The notes under the pieces are model-generated. The model was not told the DNA's origin. It searched no databases and worked only from the letters and a program-made list of their open reading frames with translations. A stretch of DNA of 64,000 nucleotides from Flavobacteriales bacterium. Lineage in GTDB: Bacteria > Bacteroidota > Bacteroidia > Flavobacteriales_F > PHOS-HE28. The stretch lies in contig JBIQIX010000004.1 of assembly GCA_044507815.1 (NCBI GenBank), forward strand, positions 195,288 through 259,287, read 5' to 3'. Positions 8,230 to 53,731 of this stretch are shown here, piece by piece. Within the stretch, counting starts at the first letter, position 1; each line of letters opens with the position of its first letter. A program made the translations under genes and the position numbers.

Positions 8230-9891
8230 ATGCTTCGTTTTCCATTGTTGGCCGCGGCCGTTTGCGCCGCATTCCTGCCGCTGCAGGCCCAAGTATCCGT
8301 CGGTGGCCTGCCGTATTCATTGCGCACCGGTGAAGGATCGAGGGAAGTCCCATTGGTATCGGCGCCTGCGTTCGATGCAGCGGAAGCGGCCCTGCGCGAT
8401 GCACAGCGCGACGCTGCGGGTCTCATGCCCGCGTATTCCCGGATCTTGCCCTTGGATGCCGGCCTGGCCACGGGCCAATGGCTCGGGCTGCCCGATGGCG
8501 GCCGCGTTTGGCGGCTGCGTGTGAAAAGCACGGGTGCCCTGGCCACCGAGCTGTATTTCAGCGATTTCAACCTGCCCGCCACCGCCACCATGCATGTGTA
8601 CACCGAGGACGGCCGGCATGTACTGGGCGGATTCACCGCGGCCAACAACATTCCCGATGGCGATTTTGCCACCAGCCTGTTGCCGGGCGACCGGTGCGTG
8701 ATCGAATACCACGAGCCGGCCCCTGTAATTGGCCAAGGCCGGTTCCGGCTCACCGGCATCGGGCATGCCTACCGCCATGTGGGGGAGGTGCTGGCATCAG
8801 GCGCTTGCCAAGTGGACGTTAATTGCAGCGAGGGCAGCGCATGGCAGGAGCAGCGCGATGCGGTAGTAAGGATCGGCGTGGTGATCGGTGGCTGGGGCTA
8901 CTGGTGCAGCGGCGCCCTGGTGAACAACTTGGCACAGGATTGCAAACCATATTTCCTCACCGCCATGCACTGTTCGGTGGATGAGGGCGTGCATTCCACC
9001 ACGGCCAACTTCAACCAATGGAAATTCTATTTCAACTATGAGCGCTCCGGATGCGGCACCGGTGCCACGCCCAGCAACCGTACCGTCACGGGCTGCGTCA
9101 AGCTCGGTTCCAGCAACGACAATGGCGGCGACAATGGTTCTGATTTCCTTTTGGTGGAAGGCAAGACCGCCATTCCCCACAGCTATTCCCCCTACTGGGC
9201 CGGATGGGATGCCAGCGGTGCGGGCAGCGCCAACGGCGTCGGCATTCATCACCCCGATGGCGACCGCAAAAAGATCAGCACGTACAACACCGCGCTCAGC
9301 TCCACCAATTGGAGCATGGTGCCGAACACGCATTGGAAGGTACGGTGGGCTGCCACCGCGAACGGGCACGGCGTGACCGAGGTCGGTTCATCGGGCTCGG
9401 CCCTGTTCAATTCGGCCAAGCGGGTGGTGGGCACGCTGACCGGGGGCAGCACGAGTTGCACCAACCTGAACGGGTTCGATTATTACGGCAAAATGAGCTA
9501 CCACTGGTCAAGCAACCCCGGTACCGCCACCATGTACCTCAAGAATTTCCTGGATCCGGCCAACACCGGTACCAAGGTCATGGACGGCAGCTATGACCCG
9601 TGTGGCCAGTATGCGGGCATTACCGGGCCGGATCGAACGCTGCCGCACCTGGGCGTGTACCCGAACCCGGCGATGGATATGGCCGTGGTGGAGTTGCCTG
9701 AGGGCGTACGCGGCAACGGGCGGGTGGAGTTGCGCGACATGGCCGGCAGGTTGGTGTTGCAGATGCCGCTGCGTGCGGAGGCTGAGGTCCGCTTGCCTGT
9801 AAGCGCCATGGAGAACGGTGCCTATGTGGTCCAAGTGCTGGTGCAGGAGCGGATCATGGCCACGGCCGCGCTCATTGTGGCGGGCCGGTGA
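8230..9891 (+). CDS. Secreted S1-family trypsin-like serine peptidase (lysyl-endopeptidase-like) with a type-A T9SS C-terminal sorting domain
   Basis: There is a signal peptide (MLRFPLLAAAVCAAFLPLQAQ). The catalytic residues sit in TAMHC (His), DFLLVEG (Asp) and GSSGSALF (Ser). The C-terminal ~80 aa has the beta-sandwich pattern of a T9SS C-terminal domain (YPNPA…ELRDMAGRLV…YVVQV). Confidence 0.75.
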   Translation: MLRFPLLAAAVCAAFLPLQAQVSVGGLPYSLRTGEGSREVPLVSAPAFDAAEAALRDAQRDAAGLMPAYSRILPLDAGLATGQWLGLPDGGRVWRLRVKSTGALATELYFSDFNLPATATMHVYTEDGRHVLGGFTAANNIPDGDFATSLLPGDRCVIEYHEPAPVIGQGRFRLTGIGHAYRHVGEVLASGACQVDVNCSEGSAWQEQRDAVVRIGVVIGGWGYWCSGALVNNLAQDCKPYFLTAMHCSVDEGVHSTTANFNQWKFYFNYERSGCGTGATPSNRTVTGCVKLGSSNDNGGDNGSDFLLVEGKTAIPHSYSPYWAGWDASGAGSANGVGIHHPDGDRKKISTYNTALSSTNWSMVPNTHWKVRWAATANGHGVTEVGSSGSALFNSAKRVVGTLTGGSTSCTNLNGFDYYGKMSYHWSSNPGTATMYLKNFLDPANTGTKVMDGSYDPCGQYAGITGPDRTLPHLGVYPNPAMDMAVVELPEGVRGNGRVELRDMAGRLVLQMPLRAEAEVRLPVSAMENGAYVVQVLVQERIMATAALIVAGR

Positions 9892-10306
9892 CCGGGGTGG
9901 GCCTAGGGGGAGTGAAGGGCATCATTTCCGCCCCGATCATGTGCACCTCCAGTTGCCGTTGGCCGTACTTGGCTCGCAGGGTGGCGCGGCTTTCGCGGCC
10001 TTCTTCCGGCGTGGCAAAACGAAGCACGTCCACATCGGCAACGCCCGCGAAGGGGCCGGGCCATTGCATGCCGGCCCATCGCACCAGGTCCACATCGCTG
10101 AACATGCCCGTGGTGCCGAAGAGCGGTGAGATCTGCACCACAGGGCCATTGCGCCAATTGCCCACCACATAGCTGTAGATGGTGTCCTGCGCCCGGGCCG
10201 GCAATGCGGTGAGGAACAGCAGGAGTACGATCGGGTGCAGCCTGTTCAAAAGAAAAGCCCTCCCGAATGCGGGAAGGCTTTTCAATAGGGTGTGCGGCCG
10301 GTTCAT
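9872..10306 (-). CDS. Hypothetical secreted protein
   Basis: Start is assigned to MNRPHTLLKSLPAFGRAFLL (ATG 10306) because that ATG overlaps the Dps stop codon as ATGA; the same frame is open to an earlier ATG at 10333 (MDAGLLQQR), so the N-terminus is uncertain. The signal-peptide-like stretch NRLHPIVLLLFLTALPARAQ does not begin at the chosen Met (22 residues precede it), so the signal-peptide call itself is tentative. No recognisable domain. The 3' end overlaps the convergent protease gene by 20 nt. Confidence 0.4.
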   Translation of the reverse strand: MNRPHTLLKSLPAFGRAFLLNRLHPIVLLLFLTALPARAQDTIYSYVVGNWRNGPVVQISPLFGTTGMFSDVDLVRWAGMQWPGPFAGVADVDVLRFATPEEGRESRATLRAKYGQRQLEVHMIGAEMMPFTPPRPTPVTGPPQ

Positions 10307-10827
10307 CCTTTGTTGAAGGAGCCCAGCATCCAATGGTGCTTTTCAAGTTGCTCAATGAAGCCCTTCACCATGCGTTCGGTACCTGCATCGGACAGCTCCA
10401 GGGCGAGGTCAACGGTCTCGTACATGTGATCAACCAGGGTCACGTAATCCGCCAGCAGGTTTTTCACCATTTGCGTTGAATCGGGCACGCTGGGATCCTC
10501 TTTCAGGCTGCTGTTCTCCAGGTATTCGGCGAAGGTGCTCAGTGGGCGCTCGTGGAATACACGCACCCGCTCGGCGATCAGGTCAATGTTTTCCTGGGCC
10601 TGGGTGTATTGCAGTTCCAATTGCTCGTGGATGTCGAAGAAGTCGCCACCGGTAACGTTCCAGTGGTAGTTGCGCAACTTTTGGTAGTGCACTTGGTAAT
10701 TGGCCAGCAGTTCGTTCAAGGAGTTTGAAAGTTGCTCGCGTTCCTCGGCATTCCACCGGAGCGAGTGCTTGCGGGTTACTTGGTTCTTCGTGTCCGTTTT
10801 CTTGGTTGCCGATTTCTTTGCTGCCAT
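10303..10827 (-). CDS. dps: Dps (DNA starvation/stationary-phase protection protein, ferritin-like)
   Basis: Dps/ferritin-like four-helix-bundle signature: YQVHYQKLRNYHWNVTGGDFFDIHEQLE…DLIAERV. Start at MAAKKSATKK. Confidence 0.8.
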   Translation of the reverse strand: MAAKKSATKKTDTKNQVTRKHSLRWNAEEREQLSNSLNELLANYQVHYQKLRNYHWNVTGGDFFDIHEQLELQYTQAQENIDLIAERVRVFHERPLSTFAEYLENSSLKEDPSVPDSTQMVKNLLADYVTLVDHMYETVDLALELSDAGTERMVKGFIEQLEKHHWMLGSFNKG

Positions 10828-10864
10828 GTTATAATGAAGGTTTGCGGGTAAACATACCGCAACG

Positions 10865-11242
10865 TCAATTGTTCGCGCGCAGGCGCTTGCGGCGGTGCGC
10901 GCCCACGGCCAGCGGCAACATGGCACCGAACGCGATGAGCAGGCCAAGGAATTCCCGGGATTCCTCGATCACCGGCGTGGTGGCCTTCATTTCCCCCGTG
11001 ATGTCGACAAAGCCACTGTTCGCCCATTGCAGCATGGCGGGCGAAGCGGCCAGCATCCACAGGCCGATGATGCCGGCAACGCCCCACATCCACCAGGCCG
11101 GGTAGCGCCCCAATGCGGCCAATGCACAGCTGACGGCCACCAATGAATACCCCGTGATCCAGATCATCGGGTCGGGATCGTTCCATTGTAACGCCGCGAA
11201 CAACAGGAAGACGAGGGTAAGTATGGCGTACAGGATCTTCAT
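10865..11242 (-). CDS. Small multi-pass membrane protein (TMEM220-like)
   Basis: Four predicted transmembrane segments, ending in a basic C-terminus. Confidence 0.5.
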   Translation of the reverse strand: MKILYAILTLVFLLFAALQWNDPDPMIWITGYSLVAVSCALAALGRYPAWWMWGVAGIIGLWMLAASPAMLQWANSGFVDITGEMKATTPVIEESREFLGLLIAFGAMLPLAVGAHRRKRLRANN

Positions 11243-11278
11243 GCAGCTAAGTTCATGTTTTCCGTGGACCGCAGTGCA

Positions 11279-13591
11279 TTAGAATTCAATGCGGTAGCTC
11301 AAATTGGGGATCAACCCCAGTTGGTTCTTCGCCACCACCTTTCCTTGGCGTGCATCCCAATAATGGAAGGCCACGTTCTGTTGGTTGGTAACATTCTGAA
11401 GGTCCAGCGCCCATAGGCCGGTATGCCCCTTACGGTCCTTTTTCAGGTACACCCGCAGGTCCAGGCGGAAATAGGCGGGCAGCTGCTCCCATTCGGACTG
11501 CCCCGCAAAAACCACCTCGCCATTGATGCCGGTGTATGCGGGCAGCGGTGGGTCCCAACCGCCGCCCATGGTGTTCACCCTTCCACTGATGCCCCAGGTG
11601 CGCACGCGGTCCTCCTTTTGCTTCCTGAACTCTTTTCCGCCCAAGAGGTTGCCGATGTAGTTGTTGTTCCAGCGGGTGCCTTCGGTATGGCCGTGCATGG
11701 AGTAAGCGCTGTTGAACAAAGAAAGGTTGGCGCAGTAGAAAAAGCCGGTCGCGAAGCGATGATCGATGCTGGCCTCCACACCCTGGTTCGTGGCGGTGCC
11801 GTTGGCTATGAGGGGAAACGCGAATTGCTCATTCCACAGGTTGACGATGGCCAGGTTGTTGACCGCGGCCCACCAGGCCGCAACGGGCAAAGCGGTGATG
11901 TGCTGATGGTACACTTCCGCATGCAGCACCAAGCGGTCGGCCACGGGGTGGTCATACCCGAGCACGACGTCCAACGAGCGGGACGGGCCGATGGCCTGCT
12001 GCGCGAAGCCATCGCCTCTTGTGGCGAAGGATTGCCATTGCGGCCATTGGGACCTGGTGCCGGCGGCCAATGCGAGCGCGCGTCCTTGGCGCATCCGCCA
12101 AGCAAGTTGCGCACGTGGCTCGGCCAACAATTCCCGCGTGCCGGTGAAATAGGGGAGGCCAAGGCCGGCCCCGATTTCGAGGTGTTCGGTCAGCGTCCAC
12201 CGGCCATGCGCCCACGGACGGAAGGTCCAGGCCGAGGTATCAGGGTCCAGCGGGGTGTAGAGCTGCCGTTCCAGTGCCGTTGCGCCAAGGGCATACCGGA
12301 AGCGTGCGCCCACGGCACCATCCCATTGCACCGCGCCGGAGAGCTTCCGTTCGTTGAGCGCCGCGCGCTCTTGGCCGATCGTCCGGTAATCATCGGCCAA
12401 TTGTTGCTCGTCCCGCACTTGGTCGATCGCTGATGCGCCCAACGCGGCGGAGAAGCTGCCGCGCCGGCCCACGGGCACGCGTATCCTGGCGCCCACCGCG
12501 CCCATACGCGAGCTGTAATCGATGTTCCGGCTGTCCTTGTCCACCTCCCACTGGCTGGTGTCATGCACCGCTTTGAACACGTTGCTGCTGTTGCCACCCA
12601 GGCCGAACAAATGCCATTCGCCGCGCTTGCCCGCCGGTAGCGCCACATGGAAGCTAAGATCTTGGTAGGTGATATGTTCATCGCCGAAATCCACTCCCAA
12701 GCTGCTGAGCAGGCCCACGGTGGAGTAGCGGTAATTGGCCAAGTATGAGGAGCGCCCGCCCTGGGCGATGGGCCCCTCGGTGGCCAGATCAAGGCCGAGC
12801 AGGCCGGCCTGCACAGTCCATTCCTGCTTTTCTTGGTTTCCTTTTCGTAGCCGCATATCCAAAATGCCGCCCAAGGCGTTGTCCCGCTCCATCGGCAGCA
12901 CGCCGGTCAACAGTTGCGAAGGCCCCAGCATTTGTGCGCTGAGCAGGGTCACCCCGCCGCCGCTTAACGTGGGCAGGTCGGTGGCTGTACCGGCGTTGCC
13001 CGTATGGTTCGGGTTCACGATCTCCACGCCTTCGAGCAGCCAAGTGTTCGCGTTGGGCGAATTGCCGCGGATGCTGAGGTGGTTGGCCTCATCGTTGGTG
13101 GTGGCCACCCCGGGGATTGCGCTTACCAACCGGGCCGGGTCGAAGAAGGTGGCGGCCCACCGCAGGCTTTGTTCCACGGTGAAGGGCTGTACCCCAAGGA
13201 GCGACGGTCTTTCGCGGGCCAGGGCACTTATCGTAACGCTGCCCAGGTGCCCCGAGGATAGGTCCAGCTCGATGCGCTGCACATGCTGCTTGCCCGCGCG
13301 CAGCCACAGTTCGGGCACTTCAAGCGTGTCGTGGCCCACGGCCGTGACACGCAGGGCGTAATGCCCCACGGGTATGGCACTAATGCGGAAATGGCCGCTG
13401 CTGTCCGTGGTGGCCGTCAGGTGCGGGTTGCCGGGCAACAAGGCCAGCGATGCGCCGGGCAAGGGCTCCAGCGTTTGGGCGGCAACCACCTGCCCGGTCA
13501 GGGTGGCCATGGGCGGTTGGGCCATGGCCAGTTGGGAGATGAGGCAACCGATGGCCATTGTTGCCGCCACCCTTGCCAAAGAGTTAACCAT
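11279..13591 (-). CDS. TonB-dependent receptor with an N-terminal carboxypeptidase-regulatory-like domain
   Basis: A signal peptide is followed by a CarbopepD_reg-like domain (TLTGQVV…PGASL…TDSSGHFRI), a plug region and a long beta-barrel ending in a terminal aromatic residue (…SYRIEF). Confidence 0.75.
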   Translation of the reverse strand: MVNSLARVAATMAIGCLISQLAMAQPPMATLTGQVVAAQTLEPLPGASLALLPGNPHLTATTDSSGHFRISAIPVGHYALRVTAVGHDTLEVPELWLRAGKQHVQRIELDLSSGHLGSVTISALARERPSLLGVQPFTVEQSLRWAATFFDPARLVSAIPGVATTNDEANHLSIRGNSPNANTWLLEGVEIVNPNHTGNAGTATDLPTLSGGGVTLLSAQMLGPSQLLTGVLPMERDNALGGILDMRLRKGNQEKQEWTVQAGLLGLDLATEGPIAQGGRSSYLANYRYSTVGLLSSLGVDFGDEHITYQDLSFHVALPAGKRGEWHLFGLGGNSSNVFKAVHDTSQWEVDKDSRNIDYSSRMGAVGARIRVPVGRRGSFSAALGASAIDQVRDEQQLADDYRTIGQERAALNERKLSGAVQWDGAVGARFRYALGATALERQLYTPLDPDTSAWTFRPWAHGRWTLTEHLEIGAGLGLPYFTGTRELLAEPRAQLAWRMRQGRALALAAGTRSQWPQWQSFATRGDGFAQQAIGPSRSLDVVLGYDHPVADRLVLHAEVYHQHITALPVAAWWAAVNNLAIVNLWNEQFAFPLIANGTATNQGVEASIDHRFATGFFYCANLSLFNSAYSMHGHTEGTRWNNNYIGNLLGGKEFRKQKEDRVRTWGISGRVNTMGGGWDPPLPAYTGINGEVVFAGQSEWEQLPAYFRLDLRVYLKKDRKGHTGLWALDLQNVTNQQNVAFHYWDARQGKVVAKNQLGLIPNLSYRIEF

Positions 13592-44338: not shown

Positions 44339-45532
44339 TCAGTGCGTGTGCTCCCCGGTTCCCTTGGTCAACTCGCTTAGCAGGTAGTATGCGCCCTTGA
44401 TCACAATGCGTTCTTCCGGGCGAACGGGCGATAACGGCATGATCTCGGTATAGCCCAACGCGGTGGTGCCCACCCGCACGGGTGTCATCGCAAAGGTGAG
44501 CGGCTCCTTTTCCACGAAGATGTAATGCTCATCACCGTTGTTCACCACGGCATTTTCGGGTAGGCTCCAAGCGAAGGTGCTGTCGGTGGTGATCAACGCC
44601 TCGATGTACATGCCGGCCAGCAGGTCCTCGCTATGCCCGTCGATCTTGGCATGTGCCAGCACGGCCTGCTGGTCGCTTTGGAACGCCTTGTTCATGGCGT
44701 ATATGGTGGCGGAATGATGGCCGATCGATTCGCCGGCATGGCCGAAGACCACCTTTTGCCCCACCTTCACCTTGGCCACGTCCTGTTCGAAGATGTTGAG
44801 GTCGATGTGCAGGCCGCTGTTGTCCACGAGGGTGAACAGGGGCTTGTTGGGCTCTGCGTTCTGGCCCGTGTTCACGTTGATGGCCTGCACATTGCCCTCT
44901 ATCGGGGCCAGTACGCTGAAGGTGGGGCTGATCCGTTGCGGTGTTATGGTGGCCGGGTCAACCCCGAACAGGCGCAGTTTGGCGGCCATTGCCGATTGGC
45001 GCGCCTGCGCCATGGAAAGGTCGGCCTGTGCCCGTTCGAGCGTGCGCGTTGGGCTTATCCGTTCCTCGTGCAGGCCCTGCTGGCGCTTGAGGTCGGCATC
45101 CAGTGCCTGCAGGTTGGCACCGTTCTCGAGATAATCCTGTTGCAATTGCAGCAACTCCAGGCTTTCCAGCGAGGCCAATGCCTGCCCTTTCTGCACATGC
45201 TGGCCGTCGCGCACCTGTACCTGGCGCACGAGGCCGCCGAAGAGCACGCTCACCTCGGCGCTTTTGTCCGGTGGCAGTACCAAGCGTCCGTTCACGCGCA
45301 ACGATGAATTGAGGCCACGCTTTTCCATGGTGCCCGTGGTCAGCCCGATGGCGGCCACCTGGTCCGTGGTGAGCTTTACCTCGTCGGCATGCGCACCCTC
45401 GCTTTCCTGCCCGGCGTGGTCACCCGGGGCGGCCGGGGTGCTGCACGCGACAACGGCCAGGGCGAGCAAAAAAGGAAGCGTAGATCGCATGGGGTAGTAG
45501 GCTGAACGTGTTTTCATGAAAGGCTTGTTCAT
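44339..45532 (-). CDS. Efflux RND transporter periplasmic adaptor subunit (CzcB/CusB-like)
   Basis: Lipoprotein-type signal peptide, coiled-coil hairpin, and biotinyl/lipoyl-like plus beta-barrel domains typical of HlyD-family adaptors. Immediately downstream of the RND pump gene. Confidence 0.8.
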   Translation of the reverse strand: MNKPFMKTRSAYYPMRSTLPFLLALAVVACSTPAAPGDHAGQESEGAHADEVKLTTDQVAAIGLTTGTMEKRGLNSSLRVNGRLVLPPDKSAEVSVLFGGLVRQVQVRDGQHVQKGQALASLESLELLQLQQDYLENGANLQALDADLKRQQGLHEERISPTRTLERAQADLSMAQARQSAMAAKLRLFGVDPATITPQRISPTFSVLAPIEGNVQAINVNTGQNAEPNKPLFTLVDNSGLHIDLNIFEQDVAKVKVGQKVVFGHAGESIGHHSATIYAMNKAFQSDQQAVLAHAKIDGHSEDLLAGMYIEALITTDSTFAWSLPENAVVNNGDEHYIFVEKEPLTFAMTPVRVGTTALGYTEIMPLSPVRPEERIVIKGAYYLLSELTKGTGEHTH

Positions 45533-45544
45533 CGGTTGCGCGTT

Positions 45545-48500
45545 TTAGCGACCCAGCAGGGCATTGAGGTGAAGTGTGGTCAGGCCCAATTGGAGCAGCA
45601 CATCGAGGTGGGCCTCCTCGATCGCCCTGGCTTGTTCCATGCCTTGCAGGAATTCCATGTAGCTGGCCTCGCCGCTTTGGTAGGCCCGGGTGGCATCATG
45701 GCGCAGGGCCGTGGCCAACGCCGTGCCTGTGCCCTGGTAGTATTCGAGGCTTTGTTGCAATTGGGTCCATTGGGCGCGTGTAGCGGTCAGTTCGGCCACA
45801 CGCCCGCGGCGCAGTTCCTCGTATTGTTGTTCGGCGATCTCGCTGCGCAGGCGGGCCGCACGGGTCTGCGCTCCCTGTCCCGAACCGGGCAGGGGGATGG
45901 AAGTGCCGAGCACGTAACCTTTGTATGGGAATACGCCATCGATGGATTGGAGGATCGCACCGGCTTGCAATGATGGCGCCCATTGGGCGCGCTGCATGCG
46001 CCATTCGGCCCCGGCCACTTGGGCCCGTTGCCGTGCCGATGCCAGCACGGGGTCGTGCCCAGCGTCTGCCGGCGGGTCGGTTAGCTGTGTTGCCATGCGG
46101 GCCAAGGCGGCGGTATCGGCGACGGCCCCGGCCAGTGGGCCGGTCCATTGTTCAAGTTCAACCGCAAAAACAGCCACGTCCGAGCTTGCCTTTTGCCATT
46201 GCAGCCTGGCCTGGTCGGCAGCGCTTTTCGCGCTCATGGCCTCCAAGCGTCCGCTTTGGCCCAGCTGGAATTTGCGGTCGGCCATGCTGGCCAGCAGTTG
46301 CATTGCGCTGTCGTTGCGCTGCAGTAGCCGTGCGCGCCAGGTGGCGGCCGACCACTGCAGGTAGGCCCCGGCCACGTTTTCGCGCACGGCCGCACCGATG
46401 CGCTGCCGGTCGGCCTCGGCTAAGCGCAGGCTTTCCTGCAAGTAGCGGCTGCGTTGGGCAATGGCCGTGGGGAACGGGATACCGGTAACGGCTTGCAGGT
46501 TGAAATCGTGGGCGGCACTGTTGATCTGCCCGCCCTGCAGCTGGGCGCTGACCGGTTGGAGCTGTAATGCGGTTTTCTTCAGGGCCTGCTGCTGCCGCAC
46601 GTCCAGTTCGGCGGCCGTAATGGCAGGGTGGCCCCGCATGGCGCGGGCGATGGCCGTATCAAGGGGCAGCACGGGCGCCTGCGCGCTTGCCGGCACGGCC
46701 GCCGTAATGGCCAAGGCGAGCACCATGATGGGCGCGCCGCCTGGGGAATCGCGCTTCTGCTTCCGTTTCCTGCGCATGAACACCCAGTGGTAGAGCACGG
46801 GAACCACGGCCAGGGTGAGCAGGGTGGAGGTTATGAGACCCCCGATAACCACCGTGGCCAAGGGACGTTGCACTTCTGCGCCGGGGCTGGTGCTGATGGC
46901 CATGGGCAGGAAGCCGAGCGAGGCCACGGCAGCGGTGGCCAGCACGGGCCGCAAGCGGGCCATGGTGCCGCGCACCACGCGCTCGGTCACGTCCTCCACG
47001 CCGTCCGCCTTCAAGCGGTTGAAATAGCTCATGAGCACGATGCCGTTGAGCACCGCCACGCCGAAGAGCGCGATGAAGCCGATGCCCGCGCTGATGCTGA
47101 AGTCCAGCCCGCGCACCCACAGGGCGAGCACGCCGCCCACCGCGGCCATGGGCACAGCGCTGAAGATGATCAGCGCTTCGCTGAGCGAGCGGAAGGCGAA
47201 GTAAAGCAGCACGAAGATGAGGGCCATGGCCAGCGGCACGGTGAGCAGCAGCCGCGCGCTGGCTTCCTGCAAATTCTTGAACGTGCCGCCGTAGCTGACG
47301 AACCAGCCGGTGGGCAGCTTCAGGTCGCGGCCGATCACGGCTTGGATATCTTCCGCCGTGCTTTGGATGTCGCGGCCCCGCACGTTGGCTTCCACCACGA
47401 TGCGCCGCGCGCCGTTCTCGCGGCTCACCTGTGCGGCCGCGCTTTGGAAGCTCACTTCGGCCAGTTGCCCCAGTGGGATCTGCTTGCCCGTGCCGGGCAG
47501 CGGCACCAGAATGCTCTTCACTTTATCGGCGTCCGCATCGCGCATGTCGGCCAGGCGCACCACCAGGTCGAAGCGGCGTTCACCTTCATACACCACGCCG
47601 GCGTGGCCGCCCGCCAAGGCGGTGTTCAGTACGCGGTTCAGCTCGGCGATGTTCAGCCCGTACTGCGCCACGCGGGCACGGTCGTATTTCACCACGAGTT
47701 GCGGCATGCCGGTCACCTGCTCCACCTTGATGTCCGTGGCCCCGGGCACCGTGGCGATCAGCGCGGCGGCTTCATTGGCCTTCTTGAACATGTGGTCGAG
47801 GTCGTCGCCGTAGATCTTCACCGCGATGTCGCTCTTCACCCCGGCGATCAGTTCGTTGAAGCGCATCTGGATGGGCTGCTCGAAGCTGAGGTTGATGCCG
47901 GGGATCACGCCGAGCTTTTCGGCCATCAGCTCCGCCATCTTCTCGCGGTCCTTCGTGGTGGTCCAGTCCTTGCGTTCCTTCATCACGATGATCAGGTCCT
48001 GGCTTTCCATGGGCATGGGGTCGGTGGGGATCTCGCTGCTGCCGATCTTGCCCACCACCTCCTTCACTTCCGGGAATTCCTTCATCAGGATGCGCGCGGC
48101 CTGATCGCTCACGGCGATGCTCTGGCTGAGGTTGCTTCCTTGGCGGATGGTGAGGTTGGTGGCGAAGTCGCCTTCATCCAGTTCGGGGATGAACTCGCCG
48201 CCCAAGCGGTTGAACACGAACAGCGAGATCACCACCAAGCCCAAGGCACCCGCCAAGGTGGACTTGCGGTGGCGCAGCAATCCCTTCAACTTGGGCGCAT
48301 ACCATTGCTGCAGGCGGTGTACCATGCGCTCGCTCCAGCTTTCACCTTTCGGGATCTGACGGTCCATGAAGAGTGAGACCACCCACGGCACATAGGTGAC
48401 GCTGAGCAGCAGTGCGCCGATGATGGCGAAGCTGACGGTGAATGCCATGGGGCGGAACATCTTGCCTTCGATGCCCACCAGGGCGAAGATGGGCACGTAC

Positions 48501-49873
48501 ACGATGAGGATGATCACCTGGCCGAAGACGGCGCTTTTCATGATGCCTCCGGCCGAGCGGATCGTCTCGTCGCTCATTTCCTTCTTGGTGAGAAGGGCTC
48601 CTGCGTGGCGCTTGTGCAGGGCGAAGAGCATGCCTTCCACCACGATCACCGCGCCGTCCACGATGAGGCCGAAATCCAGCGCGCCCATGCTCATCAGGTT
48701 GGCGCTCTGGCCGGCCACCACCATGCAGCCGATGGCGAACAGCAGCGCGAGCGGGATCACGCTGGCCACGATGAGGCCCGCGCGCCAGTTGCCCAGCAGC
48801 AGCAGCAGCACGGCGATCACGATCAACGCGCCCATCAGCAGGTTGTGCTCCACCGTGCCGATGGTCTGCGCCACCAGCTTGGAGCGGTCCACGAAAACAT
48901 CCACGTATACGCCTTCGGGCAGGCTGTGCCGCACCTCTTCCATGCGCTCCTTCACGGCGGTGACGGTGGCCATGGCGTTGGCGCCCTTCATCATCAGCAC
49001 CACGCCGCCCACGGCTTCGCCTTGGCCGTTGCGCGTCATGGCACCGTAGCGCGTGGCATGGCCGAACTGCACTTCGGCCACATCGCGCACGCGCACCGGA
49101 CTGCCGCCGCGCGCCTCGATCACCGTGTTCTCCAGGTCCTTTAGGGAACTCACTAAGCCTTCGCCGCGGATGAAGTAGATGTTCGGCCCTTTCTCGATGT
49201 AGCTGCCACCGGTGTTGGCGTTGTTGCTCTCCAGCGCGTTGAACACGTCCAGCAGGGAAAGCCCGGCACCGGCCAGCTTGCGCGCGTCCACGCGGACTTC
49301 ATACTGTTTCAGCAGGCCGCCGAAGCTGCTTACGTCGATCACGCCCGGCACGCCCAGCAGGTGTTGGCGCACCACCCAGTCCTGCAGCGTGCGCAGTTCC
49401 ATCAGGTCGAATTGGCCTTGGTGGGCGCTGTCCACGGCGAGGGTGTACTGGTAGATCTCGCCGATGCCCGTGGTGGGCGGCGCCATTTCCGGGGTGCCGT
49501 ATCCGGCGGGGATCTGGCTTTGGGCCTGTGCAATGCGCTCCTGCACCAATTGGCGGCTGAGGTAGAGCGGCACGTTGTCCTTGAAGACCACCGTGACCAC
49601 CGAGAGGCCGCTGCGCGAAACGCTGCGCAACTCCACCAGGTCGGGCAGGTTCTTGAAGGCCTGTTCCAGCGGGAAGGTGATGAACTGTTCCACCTCCTGC
49701 GTGGCGAGGTTGGGCGCAATGGTGTTCACCAGCACCTGGTTGTTGGTGACGTCGGGCAGCGCGTCGAGGGGCAGCTGGGTGACGGACCATGCGCCCCAGC
49801 CGATGAAGGCCAGGAGCAGCAGGCCTGTGATGAGCTTGTTGCGTACGGAGAACGAGATGATACGTTCGATCAT
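45545..49873 (-). CDS. CzcA/CusA-type heavy-metal efflux RND permease fused in frame to a TolC-like outer-membrane efflux protein module
   Basis: Residues 1–1032 form a 12-transmembrane RND permease (MIERIISFSVRNKLITGLLLLAF…). With no intervening stop codon this continues into MRRKRKQKRDSPGGAPIMVLALAITAAVPASAQA (a signal-peptide-like segment; ATG at 46777) and about 410 aa with outer-membrane-efflux-protein family helical-repeat character. Confidence 0.7.
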   Translation of the reverse strand: MIERIISFSVRNKLITGLLLLAFIGWGAWSVTQLPLDALPDVTNNQVLVNTIAPNLATQEVEQFITFPLEQAFKNLPDLVELRSVSRSGLSVVTVVFKDNVPLYLSRQLVQERIAQAQSQIPAGYGTPEMAPPTTGIGEIYQYTLAVDSAHQGQFDLMELRTLQDWVVRQHLLGVPGVIDVSSFGGLLKQYEVRVDARKLAGAGLSLLDVFNALESNNANTGGSYIEKGPNIYFIRGEGLVSSLKDLENTVIEARGGSPVRVRDVAEVQFGHATRYGAMTRNGQGEAVGGVVLMMKGANAMATVTAVKERMEEVRHSLPEGVYVDVFVDRSKLVAQTIGTVEHNLLMGALIVIAVLLLLLGNWRAGLIVASVIPLALLFAIGCMVVAGQSANLMSMGALDFGLIVDGAVIVVEGMLFALHKRHAGALLTKKEMSDETIRSAGGIMKSAVFGQVIILIVYVPIFALVGIEGKMFRPMAFTVSFAIIGALLLSVTYVPWVVSLFMDRQIPKGESWSERMVHRLQQWYAPKLKGLLRHRKSTLAGALGLVVISLFVFNRLGGEFIPELDEGDFATNLTIRQGSNLSQSIAVSDQAARILMKEFPEVKEVVGKIGSSEIPTDPMPMESQDLIIVMKERKDWTTTKDREKMAELMAEKLGVIPGINLSFEQPIQMRFNELIAGVKSDIAVKIYGDDLDHMFKKANEAAALIATVPGATDIKVEQVTGMPQLVVKYDRARVAQYGLNIAELNRVLNTALAGGHAGVVYEGERRFDLVVRLADMRDADADKVKSILVPLPGTGKQIPLGQLAEVSFQSAAAQVSRENGARRIVVEANVRGRDIQSTAEDIQAVIGRDLKLPTGWFVSYGGTFKNLQEASARLLLTVPLAMALIFVLLYFAFRSLSEALIIFSAVPMAAVGGVLALWVRGLDFSISAGIGFIALFGVAVLNGIVLMSYFNRLKADGVEDVTERVVRGTMARLRPVLATAAVASLGFLPMAISTSPGAEVQRPLATVVIGGLITSTLLTLAVVPVLYHWVFMRRKRKQKRDSPGGAPIMVLALAITAAVPASAQAPVLPLDTAIARAMRGHPAITAAELDVRQQQALKKTALQLQPVSAQLQGGQINSAAHDFNLQAVTGIPFPTAIAQRSRYLQESLRLAEADRQRIGAAVRENVAGAYLQWSAATWRARLLQRNDSAMQLLASMADRKFQLGQSGRLEAMSAKSAADQARLQWQKASSDVAVFAVELEQWTGPLAGAVADTAALARMATQLTDPPADAGHDPVLASARQRAQVAGAEWRMQRAQWAPSLQAGAILQSIDGVFPYKGYVLGTSIPLPGSGQGAQTRAARLRSEIAEQQYEELRRGRVAELTATRAQWTQLQQSLEYYQGTGTALATALRHDATRAYQSGEASYMEFLQGMEQARAIEEAHLDVLLQLGLTTLHLNALLGR

Positions 49874-49969
49874 GCACGGGTGGGCGCAAGGGCAGCCCGG
49901 GATTAAGAAGGAAGGACTTGGGAAAAGGGGACGCCAACAGGCATTGCCGGGCGCGCGGGCGCTATGCAC

Positions 49970-50347
49970 TCAGGCGCGTGGAGGCTGCCAAATGTCGGCC
50001 GGGCCGGATTGCAGGGCCACGCGGTCCTCCCAGGGCTTCAATACCAGTTCCAAGCCGTCCGATGGTACCAGCGACGGGCCGCATTGAGCAGGCACCTTGG
50101 CCTGCAGGGTTTGTGCGCCGCAATGGTGATCGCCATGAAAAGGCAGGTTGTGGTGGTCGTGATGTTCACCGGCATGGTGTTGGCCGTGCAGGTAATGTTC
50201 GCTGATGAATGCCCACCACCCGGTGTCCTCGGCAGATTGGTGCTCCCAATAATGTTTGAGCAGGCCGGGCACCTTCAGCACTTCGTGCACCTCGGTATGG
50301 GTGGCAACGAAAAGGCTGAGCAGGGAGATGGCGATCCAATGCCGCAT
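49970..50347 (-). CDS. Histidine-rich small protein (putative metal-binding), upstream of the czc-like operon
   Basis: Hydrophobic N-terminus (MRHWIAISLLSLFVATHT) and a His cluster (HYLHGQHHAGEHHDHHNLPFHGDHHC). It ends about 100 nt upstream of the RND gene start. Confidence 0.45.
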   Translation of the reverse strand: MRHWIAISLLSLFVATHTEVHEVLKVPGLLKHYWEHQSAEDTGWWAFISEHYLHGQHHAGEHHDHHNLPFHGDHHCGAQTLQAKVPAQCGPSLVPSDGLELVLKPWEDRVALQSGPADIWQPPRA

Positions 50348-50610: not shown

Positions 50611-51837
50611 TCATTGCTTCATGTCCAAACGCTCTTCCTTTTTTTCTGCTACCCCACCGATGATCGGCAGTCGCTCGAAGGGCTTGTTGCGGTCGAACAG
50701 GTAGCGGTAGGTGGCCAAGGTGCGGTAATTGGCGGCACCGAGGTTCTCGCAAACGCGGAGCATCTTGGGGTTGAAATCGCCGACCCAGGTGAGCACCGTT
50801 TCCTTGTACCGCCGTGTTTTTTGCAGCCATTCGCTCATGAATGCGATCATGGCGCCTTCCACGCCCTTGCCCTGCCATTCCTTCACCACACCGAACACGA
50901 TCCCGGTCATGGTGGTGGCAGTGCCCCACCATTTGTGCCAAAGGAATTTCAATTTGCCCCACCAGCCCAGGCTGCCGTTCAGGTGCCGGAAGATCTCGTT
51001 CAATTCGGGCAGGTTGATGTAGAACGCGATCGGCTTGCCCCGGTGGTAAACGAAAACAACGATGCGCGGGTCCATCACCGGCTTCATCTGTTTTATGGTC
51101 TTCAGGGCCACTTCCTTGGGCATGGGCCTGAAGCCTTCGTGATCCACCCACGCCTCATTCAATACGGTGCGGAAATCCTCGGCAAGCTGTTCTGTGGACA
51201 TGCCCCGCACATTGCGGACCACGAAATCGGGATCATTTTGGAATTGGCGGTATTTGCGCACGAAAATGGGCTGTGATGGCTCCAGTGCGTCGCGCTTGAA
51301 AAAGAGCTGCCGGAAGTAGAGCTTGAAGCCGTAGCGCTCGAAAAGTTGAACGTAGTAGGAGGGGTTGTAATTGGTACCGTAGATCGGCGGGTCGGTGAAG
51401 TTCTCGATCAGCAATCCCCAGAACATGTTTCGTTCGCCCAGGTTCACCGGGCCGTCCATGGCCTCCATGCCTTGTGCCTTCAACCATGCCTTGGCGGTGT
51501 CGAAAAGCAGGTCTGCGGCGCGCTGGTCGTTGGTGCATTCAAAAAAGCCGCAGCCGCCAGTGGGTTGCTGCTTGTCGGTCCAGGCCGTCTTGGGATCCAC
51601 CCAGGCGGCGATGCGGCCGATGGCCTGCCCGCCATCATCATATAGCACCCACCGTTTGATGCTGCCCGGCTTGCGGTCGGGGCGGGGTTGCAGCAGCTTG
51701 TTCTTGGCCGGGTCGAAAACGCGCTCCACATCCTGTTCCAGGTGTGGGACCCAGTTGCTGTCGCCTGCATAGATCTTCCAAGGCAGCCGTTTCCAATCGC
51801 GCAGGGCCCGGCCGCTGGCCGCTTCCATGATCTTCAT
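50611..51837 (-). CDS. Hypothetical protein with an acyl-CoA N-acyltransferase (GNAT/FemAB-like) fold
   Basis: A 408-aa ORF. The family assignment is tentative and based on overall similarity of its sequence blocks to Bacteroidota proteins annotated as GNAT-family. Confidence 0.4.
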   Translation of the reverse strand: MKIMEAASGRALRDWKRLPWKIYAGDSNWVPHLEQDVERVFDPAKNKLLQPRPDRKPGSIKRWVLYDDGGQAIGRIAAWVDPKTAWTDKQQPTGGCGFFECTNDQRAADLLFDTAKAWLKAQGMEAMDGPVNLGERNMFWGLLIENFTDPPIYGTNYNPSYYVQLFERYGFKLYFRQLFFKRDALEPSQPIFVRKYRQFQNDPDFVVRNVRGMSTEQLAEDFRTVLNEAWVDHEGFRPMPKEVALKTIKQMKPVMDPRIVVFVYHRGKPIAFYINLPELNEIFRHLNGSLGWWGKLKFLWHKWWGTATTMTGIVFGVVKEWQGKGVEGAMIAFMSEWLQKTRRYKETVLTWVGDFNPKMLRVCENLGAANYRTLATYRYLFDRNKPFERLPIIGGVAEKKEERLDMKQ

Positions 51838-51914: not shown

Positions 51915-52430
51915 ATGCGGGTGTTCCTCATCGGTTTCATGTGCAGCGGCAAAAGCGTGGTGGGCAGGGAGCTGGCCAAGCTCACGGGCATCCGCTTCAT
52001 GGACATCGACCGCGTGATCGAGCAGCAGATCGGTCCCATACTTCCATGGATGCAGGCCCATGGCGAGGCCAAGTTCCGGGAGGTGGAAAACCGGGTATTG
52101 GAGGAGATCCTGAAGGAGCGGGAGGTGCTGGTGGCCTGTGGCGGGGGCACGCCCATGAGCGCTGATAACATGGACCGCATGTTGGCGGCCGGGCAGGTTG
52201 TTTACTTGGATGTGCCGCATGCCACCTTGTTGGCGCGCGCCAAACGCTCGGGCGGTGACCGGCCCCTGTTGTTCGGGCTGAAAGGAGAGGCCCTGGGCCA
52301 CCGCATTGCGGAATTGATGCAGGTGCGCGAGCCCGTATACCGCAGGGCACCGTGGCATGTGCCCGCCACGGGCACCCCCTACGAGATCGCCCAAATGACC
52401 GCCGCCGTGCTGGGCCTTCAGGAAAGATAG
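51915..52430 (+). CDS. aroK: Shikimate kinase
   Basis: P-loop (LIGFMCSGKSVVGRELA) and a length of about 171 aa. Confidence 0.8.
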   Translation: MRVFLIGFMCSGKSVVGRELAKLTGIRFMDIDRVIEQQIGPILPWMQAHGEAKFREVENRVLEEILKEREVLVACGGGTPMSADNMDRMLAAGQVVYLDVPHATLLARAKRSGGDRPLLFGLKGEALGHRIAELMQVREPVYRRAPWHVPATGTPYEIAQMTAAVLGLQER

Positions 52431-52921
52431 ACCGTGTCCTTGCGGCCCAGCTCCACACTGATGTGCTCCTGCAGCGTGGTGCTGAGGGTAAGGCCCACGA
52501 TATCGGCGCGCACCGGAAAGCTGCGGTGCCGCCGATCCACAAGGACCACCGTGGTCAGGCGTTTCACCGGGGAGCCGATCAGGTGCGCCGCCGCATACAT
52601 CAGGGTGCGGCCGCTCATCAGCACATCATCCACCAATACCACGGTGCGGCCGGCCAGGTCCACCGTGCCGTTGCCCAATTTGGCAGGCCCGGCCATGGGG
52701 GCGTCCTTGTCCAGTTCCAACTGGTGCAGCTCGATCCGCAGGGGCGAGATCTGTTCCAATTCGCGGCGCAACCGTTCGGCCACCTTTATGCCGCGCGGGG
52801 CAACCCCCACCAGCACCAGCCCCGGCTCGCCCACATTCTGTTCATACAGTTCAATGGCCATGCGGCGCAGCTTGCGCTGGATCCGCTCATGTTCCAATAC
52901 CACGGTACGTTCGGCCGCCAT
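52418..52921 (-). CDS. pyrR: Phosphoribosyltransferase-family protein (PyrR-like regulator / uracil phosphoribosyltransferase)
   Basis: PRPP-binding motif (VVLVDDVLMSGRTLMYAAAHL) and a PyrR-like C-terminal region (VVLVDRRHRSFPVRADIVG). Confidence 0.6.
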   Translation of the reverse strand: MAAERTVVLEHERIQRKLRRMAIELYEQNVGEPGLVLVGVAPRGIKVAERLRRELEQISPLRIELHQLELDKDAPMAGPAKLGNGTVDLAGRTVVLVDDVLMSGRTLMYAAAHLIGSPVKRLTTVVLVDRRHRSFPVRADIVGLTLSTTLQEHISVELGRKDTVYLS

Positions 52922-52975
52922 GGGCCGAAAATACGTGCCGCGAACAGATCCGTGATCACCTTTGCGGCCCCGACC

Positions 52976-53731
52976 ATGCTGGTACTTCTTTCCCCCGCCA
53001 AAAGCTTGGATGAAACGCCGCAACCGTGCCCACCTGGCGCCAGCGTGCCGGTGTTCGCCGAGGAAAGCAAGGAGGTGATGGCGCGCCTGGCCCGCCTTAC
53101 CGTGCCGGCGCTGCAGCAGTTGATGGGCATAAGCGACAGCCTGGCCGGGCTGAACCACCACCGGCACCGGCGCTGGGCGGAGGCCGAAAGAAAGGCCGCC
53201 CTTTTCCTGTTCGATGGCGAAGCGTACCGCGGCCTCGAGGCCCATCGCTTCACCCCGCACGACCTGGCGGCCGCGCAGCGCCAGCTCCGCATCCTAAGCG
53301 GCCTGTACGGCGTGCTGCGGCCGCTTGACATGATCGCGCCGCACCGCTTGGAAATGGGCACCAAGCTGGCCATGGGGCGCGGCAGGCGGGACCTGTACGC
53401 CTTTTGGGGCGAACGGATAACACGTGAACTGGCACGTACCGTTGCCGCCGAACAGCACCGCGCCGTGGTGAACCTGGCATCGGTGGAATATATGCGCAGC
53501 GTGCAACCGGCAGCGCTGCCCGTGCCCGTGATAACGCCGGTGTTCATGGAACAGACCGCACGCGGCCCGCGCGTGGTAACCGTGTACGCCAAACACCAAC
53601 GCGGGGCCATGGCCCATTGGATCATCCGCCATCGCATGGCCGACCCGTCGGAGTTGCGGCATTATGACCTGGATGGATACCGATTCGTGGAAGAAGAAGG
53701 CCGACCGGGCGAAATGGTTTTTCTGCGTTGA
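52976..53731 (+). CDS. yaaA: Peroxide-stress protein YaaA (UPF0246/DUF328)
   Basis: N-terminal MLVLLSPAKSLD signature. Confidence 0.75.
   Translation: MLVLLSPAKSLDETPQPCPPGASVPVFAEESKEVMARLARLTVPALQQLMGISDSLAGLNHHRHRRWAEAERKAALFLFDGEAYRGLEAHRFTPHDLAAAQRQLRILSGLYGVLRPLDMIAPHRLEMGTKLAMGRGRRDLYAFWGERITRELARTVAAEQHRAVVNLASVEYMRSVQPAALPVPVITPVFMEQTARGPRVVTVYAKHQRGAMAHWIIRHRMADPSELRHYDLDGYRFVEEEGRPGEMVFLR

Follow-up and report, generated by a model that had tools for sequence, protein, structure and literature searches.

A heavy-metal efflux pump and its outer-membrane channel encoded in one reading frame in Bacteroidota, with a predicted internal signal peptide

Introduction

Textbook tripartite efflux systems are drawn as three separate gene products. 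The closest described relatives of the system considered here are CzcCBA and ZneCAB of Cupriavidus metallidurans (ZneA, PDB 4K0E), which combine a heavy-metal efflux (HME) permease of the resistance-nodulation-division (RND) type with an adaptor and an outer-membrane factor (OMF), and, at a greater distance, CusCFBA of Escherichia coli and SilCBA (CusA, 3K07; CusC, 3PIK; SilC, 9RMM). Here, we analyze a locus in 64,000 nt of DNA from a Flavobacteriales bacterium (assembly GCA_044507815.1, contig JBIQIX010000004.1, positions 195,288 to 259,287 of the forward strand; hereafter the window), in which a CzcA-type permease and a CzcC-type OMF are encoded in a single reading frame, czcA::czcC. We consider it probable that the product is a polyprotein that would be cleaved at A1064/Q1065 (the slash marks the predicted cut here and below) into a 115-kDa pump that keeps a 13th helix and a 41-kDa channel.

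The locus resembles CzcCBA and ZneCAB in its three components, in a pump closest to ZneA, and in a DFG...DGA...VE(N/G) motif in transmembrane segment (TM) 4. It differs from them in gene order (A-C-B rather than C-B-A), in having A and C in one frame, in a small DUF6660-like gene upstream, and in a motif that ends in G rather than N. With the Cus and Sil systems it shares membership of the TIGR00914 family and a channel whose structural matches include SilC and CusC (TM-score ~0.72); the pump is nearer to ZneA than to CusA, and whereas CusC is made separately, as a lipoprotein anchored through an N-terminal Cys, the window channel has an A/Q site of the signal peptidase I type and no Cys.

The nearest parallel in mechanism, by analogy and not by homology, is the cytochrome b/c1 polyprotein FbcH of Bradyrhizobium japonicum, which is reportedly cleaved into two subunits (Thöny-Meyer, James and Hennecke 1991). 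There, too, a polytopic inner-membrane protein is followed, through an internal signal peptide, by an exported partner of the same complex. The proteins are unrelated, however, and both FbcH products are said to reside at the inner membrane, whereas the window product would have to cross the periplasm to the outer membrane; moreover, cleavage of FbcH has reportedly been shown, while that of the window family is predicted. Fused b/c1 proteins are also mentioned for Bradyrhizobiaceae (PMC4986455).

Pump and Channel in One Reading Frame

According to the open reading frame (ORF) listing and its translation, the frame at 45545..49969 on the (-) strand is uninterrupted, and homologues support a start at ATG 49873 (MIERIISFSVRN...), giving a protein of 1442 aa. 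A prior inspection of the letters and ORFs without database searches (the sequence-only reading) had placed the permease and the OMF in this one frame, and the domain searches and homologues described below bear this out.

Pfam ACR_tran matched residues 5-1030 of the fused protein (E 3.6e-277), covering model positions 1-1019 of 1021, and NCBIfam TIGR00914 (CusA/CzcA) scored 1165.9 bits over residues 1-1042 against a cut-off of 701.45, which places the pump within that family. In a comparison with the PDB, the closest solved chain was ZneA (4K0E; E 4e-199, query 1-1044), followed by CusA; all PDB relatives stop near query residue 1040, and no fused chain is found among them. The TM4 motif DFGLIVDGAVIVVEG resembles DFGX3DGAX3VEN, reportedly the charged TM4 motif of divalent-cation HME pumps (Nies 2003), but ends in G where that motif has N.

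In the C-terminal part, two stretches extending to residue 1441 matched Pfam OEP (PF02321) with 79.8 bits (cut-off 22; E 3e-22). The last 411 residues, modeled with AlphaFold2 as a monomer, gave a mean pLDDT of 83.9, with values <50 in the signal-peptide region, and the model contains a full OMF protomer of 4 β-strands and 8 helices in the order H1, H2, two strands, H3-H6, two strands, H7, H8, including the two ~65-residue helices of that fold. Foldseek against the PDB returned SilC, CmeC, CusC, OprM, and TolC at probability 1.0 and TM-scores of ~0.72.

When the window was compared pairwise with related loci, dN/dS was 0.09-0.21 for the pump, 0.12-0.28 for the channel, and 0.17-0.39 for the junction; both halves are thus under purifying selection. 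We also considered whether the channel domain might be a decaying or non-functional remnant, with the pump served by another OMF. The Spirosoma plasmid pSLIN01 would fit such a scenario, as an extra gene annotated "outer membrane efflux protein" lies there two genes beyond the adaptor, but the channel dN/dS is close to that of the pump part, the high-confidence model of the channel shows the OMF fold in full, and no other OMF gene adjoins the operon in the window or in the related loci L001, L002, L003, and L006. A remnant is thus highly improbable, and we rejected it on the dN/dS and fold evidence.

The two halves do not always diverge at the same pace. Between the window and L008, they differ sharply, with a dS of 0.39 in the pump part but 1.06 in the channel part and a dN of 0.074 and 0.261, respectively; between the window and L007, both halves are equal in synonymous divergence. 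The imbalance in the first pair suggests recombination near the junction or a mosaic ancestry of pump and channel.

Distribution of the Fused Gene

We searched 5.8 billion proteins and took the best 120 homologues (53-100% identity). The pump-channel junction is crossed in one frame in 120/120, with 117 of them 1430-1477 aa long and carrying both Pfam domains; the other 3 are partial proteins at contig ends, each >1064 aa. An identical protein is present in an independent assembly. The closest species genomes are those of uncultured Flavobacteriales, the best being a Cryomorphaceae metagenome-assembled genome (MAG) at 84% identity. A scan of GTDB genomes with a single-protein query, which reached close relatives only (6 Flavobacteriales-type MAGs, 1 Roseivirgaceae MAG, and 1 partial match outside Bacteroidota), found the last 518 residues matched in one frame at all 7 Bacteroidota loci.

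Plasmids extend this range. A tblastn search with a 247-aa query spanning the junction matched 552 plasmids, only 21 of which align across the junction in one frame. The complete plasmids of cultured strains that do so all belong, among the matches listed, to Bacteroidota, and they include those of Fulvitalea, Fibrella, Hymenobacter, Mucilaginibacter, Spirosoma, Adhaeribacter, Pontibacter, Flavobacterium, Runella, Chondrinema, and Chryseobacterium. Haliscomenobacter and Parabacteroides matched partially (79% and 72% of the query, respectively), and the proteobacterial matches are confined to the pump end. The fused gene of Spirosoma linguale DSM 74 is Slin_6757 (4443 nt, annotated "heavy metal efflux pump, CzcA family"), and that of Flavobacterium sp. 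CBA20B-1 has 4359 nt and is annotated "CusA/CzcA family"; in both, the adaptor gene is next. Three MAG loci have the same two-gene core of fused gene and adaptor.

Judged by these matches, the fusion is widespread in Bacteroidota, and the window locus is an ordinary member of a large, phylum-wide and so far unremarked family rather than a one-off. The sequence-only reading had noted that canonical czc and cus systems keep these genes separate, a statement that holds for Proteobacteria; in Bacteroidota, the fusion is nonetheless common. The same matches bear on whether a missed stop or frameshift from assembly or sequencing could have created the long frame. High-GC DNA does yield long spurious ORFs, and a typical one for DNA of 62-68% GC, 582 aa in length, lies antisense inside the pump gene itself (46628-48376, (+)). 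An artefact would, however, have to be reconciled with the identical protein in an independent assembly and with >100 divergent homologues of the same architecture, finished genomes of cultured strains among them. We put the chance of an artefact close to nil and rejected it on this homologue evidence.

Sequence of the Junction

The junction reads ...VVPVLYHWVF-MRRKRKQKRDSPGGAPIMVLALAITAAVPASA-QAPVLPLDTAIARAM..., with an ATG at 46777 inside it, and the inter-domain segment with its predicted cut is HWVFMRRKRKQKRDSPGGAPIMVLALAITAAVPASA/QAPVLPLDTAIARAM. The sequence-only reading had located this ATG correctly and had recognized the segment as a retained OMF signal peptide with n-, h-, and c-regions, an assignment that the sequence and an alignment of 117 full-length relatives corroborate.

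Across these 117 relatives, of which 109 could be parsed by pattern, the junction keeps a constant grammar, although hardly any of its residues is conserved. The end of TM12 (…LPVLY) is followed by 2-8 Lys/Arg in an n-region of 7-38 aa with no conserved Met, then by a hydrophobic core of ~12 residues, and then by small-x-[AGSC]/Q. This last element is present in 107/109 parsed sequences and, since the pattern missed the 8 closest relatives (SAQA, VAQA, HAQA), in 115/117 overall. The strict form [AGSTVC]xA/Q occurs in 89/109, compared to 0.075 expected per 25-residue window from background. The first channel helix (L-S-L-D-S-A-I...) usually follows the Gln after 2-6 residues, the maximum being 26. 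All n-region insertions and deletions among close relatives are in frame.

According to the Q-rule, signal peptidase I substrates of Bacteroidetes, with Ala at -1, expose a Gln at +1 (mean 71%), which is cyclized to pyroglutamate (PMC5837995). The window segment, RRKRKQKR ... IMVLALAITAAV ... A-S-A/Q, has the n-, h-, and c-regions, the small residues at -3 and -1, and the +1 Gln of such a substrate.

To judge from the best 19-residue hydrophobicity sum, computed without position weighting, the h-segment scores +4.3 in the window compared to -0.26 for TM12, with family medians of +3.4 and -0.65, respectively. The h-segment thus appears signal-peptide-like and too weak for a stable anchor.

In homologues P0003-P0016, which are close relatives, a variable, low-complexity insert of up to ~25 aa, rich in Gly, Asp, Glu, and Lys, separates the basic cluster from the hydrophobic core. 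It is net acidic, which is unusual directly ahead of the core of a signal peptide; the window is without it.

Split Operons and Stand-Alone Channels

A HMMER search with the mature channel domain against 1.84 billion cluster representatives gave 1249 matches at E <= 0.001. Of the best 150, we classified 149, and the one left over (P0080) is a full-length fused protein that also belongs to the best protein homologues. Among those classified, at least 37 are fused or are fragments still carrying TM12 upstream, and 83 are stand-alone proteins of 370-480 aa that start with Met. The stand-alone channels have [AGSC]Q within residues 13-50 in 69/83 cases, and the median distance from this Gln to helix 1 is 4 residues in fused and stand-alone sets alike. 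The uncharged span before the site (median 19 in fused compared to 16 in stand-alone proteins) is noisy owing to site-picking errors, and we do not rely on it.

We read the split loci L004, L015, L016, and L017/L018; in L004, L015, and L017/L018, the gap between czcA and czcC is 1-13 nt. L015 and L017/L018 have the full order of a small/DUF6660 gene, czcA (1048-1056 aa), czcC (395-410 aa), and czcB. L004 ends at a contig edge, so that only the 3′ end of czcA and no upstream gene is seen (junction ...AAG TAA A ATG AAA...), and the contig of L016 starts 110 nt before czcC and shows czcC-czcB only. While the nearest 120 homologues are all fused, comparison of orthologous loci, which the sequence-only reading had recommended, thus does find separate czcA and czcC genes in L004, L015, and L017/L018. 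These split operons resemble the window in gene order, the upstream small/DUF6660 gene, the channel subfamily, and a signal peptide that ends in A/Q a few residues before helix 1; they differ in the stop codon and 1-13 nt between czcA and czcC, where the window has one frame. Given split relatives with the same gene order and so short a gap, the fused gene is the same operon minus the czcA-czcC stop codon, with the short basic cytoplasmic tail of the pump doubling as the n-region of the channel signal peptide.

On a neighbor-joining tree, which is crude and has long branches, fused and split proteins are interleaved, with at least 25 state changes compared to a mean of 40.7 after shuffling, and the window's own clade is uniformly fused. 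From this tree we take only that both states recur among relatives. The shared gene order and the interleaving make the fused and split states look functionally interchangeable.

Predicted Processing of the Fused Chain

We propose the following route. Because there is no stop codon between czcA and czcC, the ribosome would make a 156-kDa precursor. After TM12, the chain would be in the cytoplasm, where the basic tail would stay, and the former CzcC signal peptide would insert N-in/C-out as a 13th membrane-spanning segment. As RND permeases start and end in the cytoplasm, a segment flanked by basic residues is expected to insert in this orientation, with its c-region facing signal peptidase I in the periplasm; the sequence-only reading had likewise argued that an N-in/C-out segment suits the cytoplasmic end of TM12, and on this point we agree. 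Signal peptidase I would cut after A1064 (P-A-S-A/Q), between bases 46682 and 46681, to give products of 115.2 and 41.0 kDa. Following the Q-rule, Q1065 would become pyroglutamate, and the mature channel would begin with pyroGlu-APVLPLDTAIAR. The 41-kDa factor, freed into the periplasm, would trimerize and insert in the outer membrane as usual, while the signal peptide would stay attached to the C-terminus of the pump. Together with the lipoprotein adaptor, pump and channel would then form a canonical RND-adaptor-OMF complex. The main benefit of the fusion may be equimolar, co-localized synthesis of pump and channel, matching their 3:3 ratio in the complex.

Cleavage is favored by the conservation of the motif within an otherwise unconstrained segment, by the position of the site, which is that of the true signal peptides of stand-alone relatives, by the interchange of fused and split states, and by the weak hydrophobic core. 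As a general statement, that Bacteroidota make pump and channel as one chain and separate the two by signal peptidase I at an internal Q-rule signal peptide that is left on the pump, the proposal seems to us fairly likely.

The sequence-only reading had instead favored an uncleaved chain, in which the hydrophobic segment would be a permanent 13th TM and a single polypeptide would form both the inner-membrane pump and the outer-membrane channel. This topology is formally consistent with a cytoplasmic TM12 end followed by an N-in/C-out segment, and the fusion is conserved. An uncleaved chain, however, gives no reason for the conservation of the -3/-1/+1 motif, the segment scores as a poor TM anchor, and the frequent interchange with split operons implies that separate proteins are the functional form. 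Distance also stands in its way. The RND headpiece is 70 Å tall and the channel α-barrel 100 Å long (PMC8277102). In the AlphaFold2 model and the alignment, the first folded channel elements begin 2-6 residues after Q1065, and H1 lies in the equatorial domain, in the middle of the α-barrel. This mid-barrel position and the 70-Å headpiece together put the channel N-terminus at least ~120 Å (70 + ~50 Å) from the inner membrane, an estimate built on secondary-structure positions and published dimensions, whereas 2-6 residues span at most ~20 Å, so that an uncleaved tether could not reach. Taken together, these points leave the single pump-channel polypeptide unsupported, and we regard it as very unlikely.

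The channel might alternatively be translated mainly from the internal start at ATG 46777 as a 44-kDa pre-protein, with the fused frame an incidental read-through product; the sequence-only reading had raised independent translation from this ATG as a further option. From M1033 onward, the sequence is a textbook signal peptide, and conservation of the cleavage motif is equally expected if the channel has its own start. A Met anywhere in the n-region is, however, found in only 49/109 sequences, and its position varies. Stops or frameshifts at the junction would be neutral under this alternative, yet 0/120 of the closest relatives are split and n-region indels are in frame; length variation of 7-38 aa that is confined to whole codons argues that translation must continue across the junction. 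In addition, ribosomes that finish czcA would still yield a fused chain in need of processing. With the Met not conserved, the case for ATG 46777 is weak, and we judge it unlikely to be the main source of the channel.

Several points nonetheless weigh against processing of a fused precursor. Internal signal peptides processed after a 12-TM protein are rare in bacteria. At the DNA level, an in-frame ATG, GTG, or TTG is present in the n-region of all six loci examined, at no conserved position, and some independent initiation at the junction may occur. The predicted cut and its site follow from motif logic and comparison with stand-alone channels, and the hydrophobicity values and the tree carry the limits given with them above. 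A search of the supplements of the Q-rule paper (PMC5837995) for CzcA or efflux entries found none.

Implications

The locus is a tripartite metal pump of the canonical kind, with pump and channel probably made as a polyprotein, and its interest lies at the level of the family. We found no paper on an RND-OMF fusion in full-text literature searches, from whose coverage subscription papers are mostly absent. In part of a 2021 Chem Rev review of tripartite efflux, the word "fused" is used only for MacB and SecDF, with no pump-channel fusion. Public records have contained the architecture since the Spirosoma genome, annotated only as a CzcA-family pump. To our knowledge, such a biogenesis route has been reported for no tripartite efflux system and for no type I secretion system.

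If the proposal is correct, export of the channel is tied one-to-one, in space and time, to insertion of the pump. Real cleavage would place the family among the very few bacterial cases in which signal peptidase I processes a polyprotein behind a polytopic membrane protein and would provide a natural way of fixing the pump:channel ratio; Bacteroidota largely lack translational coupling based on Shine-Dalgarno sequences. For annotation, the database label "CusA/CzcA family" hides that the carrier genomes encode a channel. Annotation pipelines under-count OMFs in Bacteroidota, and czcC-based surveys of metal resistance will miss fused channels. The fused and split states also offer a clean genetic handle on how channel and pump find each other.

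Operon and Neighboring Genes

The features of the locus are collected in Table 1.

Table 1. Features of the czcA::czcC locus; positions are those of the window, and residues those of the fused protein
Feature	Position	Strand	Remarks
Fused czcA::czcC gene	45545..49873	(-)	1442 codons + stop 45545-45547; predicted precursor 156.1 kDa
RND heavy-metal permease domain	46790..49873	(-)	Residues 1-1028, 12 TM; CzcA/ZneA-like; Pfam ACR_tran, TIGR00914
TM4 motif	48632-48676	(-)	Residues 400-414 of pump; DFGLIVDGAVIVVEG
Pump cytoplasmic tail, putative n-region of internal signal peptide	46736..46789	(-)	Residues 1029-1046, HWVFMRRKRKQKRDSPGG, 7 K/R; holds ATG 46777
h-region, transient or retained "13th helix"	46694..46735	(-)	Residues 1047-1060, APIMVLALAITAAV
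c-region and predicted signal peptidase I site P-A-S-A/Q	46679..46693	(-)	Predicted cut A1064 (46682-46684) / Q1065 (46679-46681)
Predicted mature OMF (CzcC/CusC/TolC fold)	45548..46681	(-)	Residues 1065-1442, 378 aa, 41.0 kDa
Periplasmic adaptor, CzcB-type membrane fusion protein	44339..45532	(-)	12 nt downstream of fused gene; Pfam HlyD_D23, TIGR01730
Small His/Cys-rich membrane protein, DUF6660-like	49973..50347	(-)	125 aa from internal Met; directly upstream of fused gene

The adaptor is a separate gene downstream, as the sequence-only reading had stated. It scored 130.2 bits with TIGR01730 against a cut-off of 94.9 and matched HlyD_D23, which places it among the RND adaptors, and its N-terminus is a lipoprotein signal with a lipobox (...LALAVVAC), providing a membrane anchor. 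The adaptor also lies 3′ of the fused gene in L001, L002, L003, L005, and L006.

The small protein encoded upstream precedes fused and split czcA alike: it is found in the window, L001 (5455-5832), L003 (5636-5908), L006 (1975-2307), and the split operon L015 (1420-1740), where it is a DUF6660 gene. A hydrophobic segment at its N-terminus is followed by a middle part rich in His and Cys (in the window, HHAGEHHDHHNLPFHGDHHC), and the C-terminal motif IWQPP[KR] is invariant. Some copies match Pfam DUF6660; the window protein falls below the threshold of that model, but its identity to the L001 ORF in the corresponding position is 38%, and its C-terminal IWQPP[KR] recurs in the Pfam DUF6660 proteins that precede the fused gene in L003 and L006. 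This protein may be an uncharacterized metal-binding accessory or sensor of the pumps.

Among related loci, L006 has a P-type ATPase and a metal repressor as neighbors, and L002 a multicopper oxidase. The window locus lacks a CusF-like gene. The locus is a Bacteroidota-type heavy-metal tripartite efflux operon, Czc/Zne-like and probably with divalent cations as substrate, and export of divalent metal cations is its likely function.

In L005 (Spirosoma linguale pSLIN01), the region downstream of the fused gene and adaptor (8933-11606) holds a gene of the sodium/calcium exchanger type and, separate from the fused channel, a second gene annotated "outer membrane efflux protein"; some carriers thus own an extra channel gene within the same cluster.

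Upstream of the operon in the window, the 408-aa ORF at 50611-51837 (-) has no Pfam match at E <= 0.01. The ORF at 52352-53731 (+), 459 aa, matches the YaaA peroxide-stress domain (PF03883) on residues 209-448 only; its long N-terminal extension is probably due to a start set wrongly in high-GC sequence, although it may be an additional domain.

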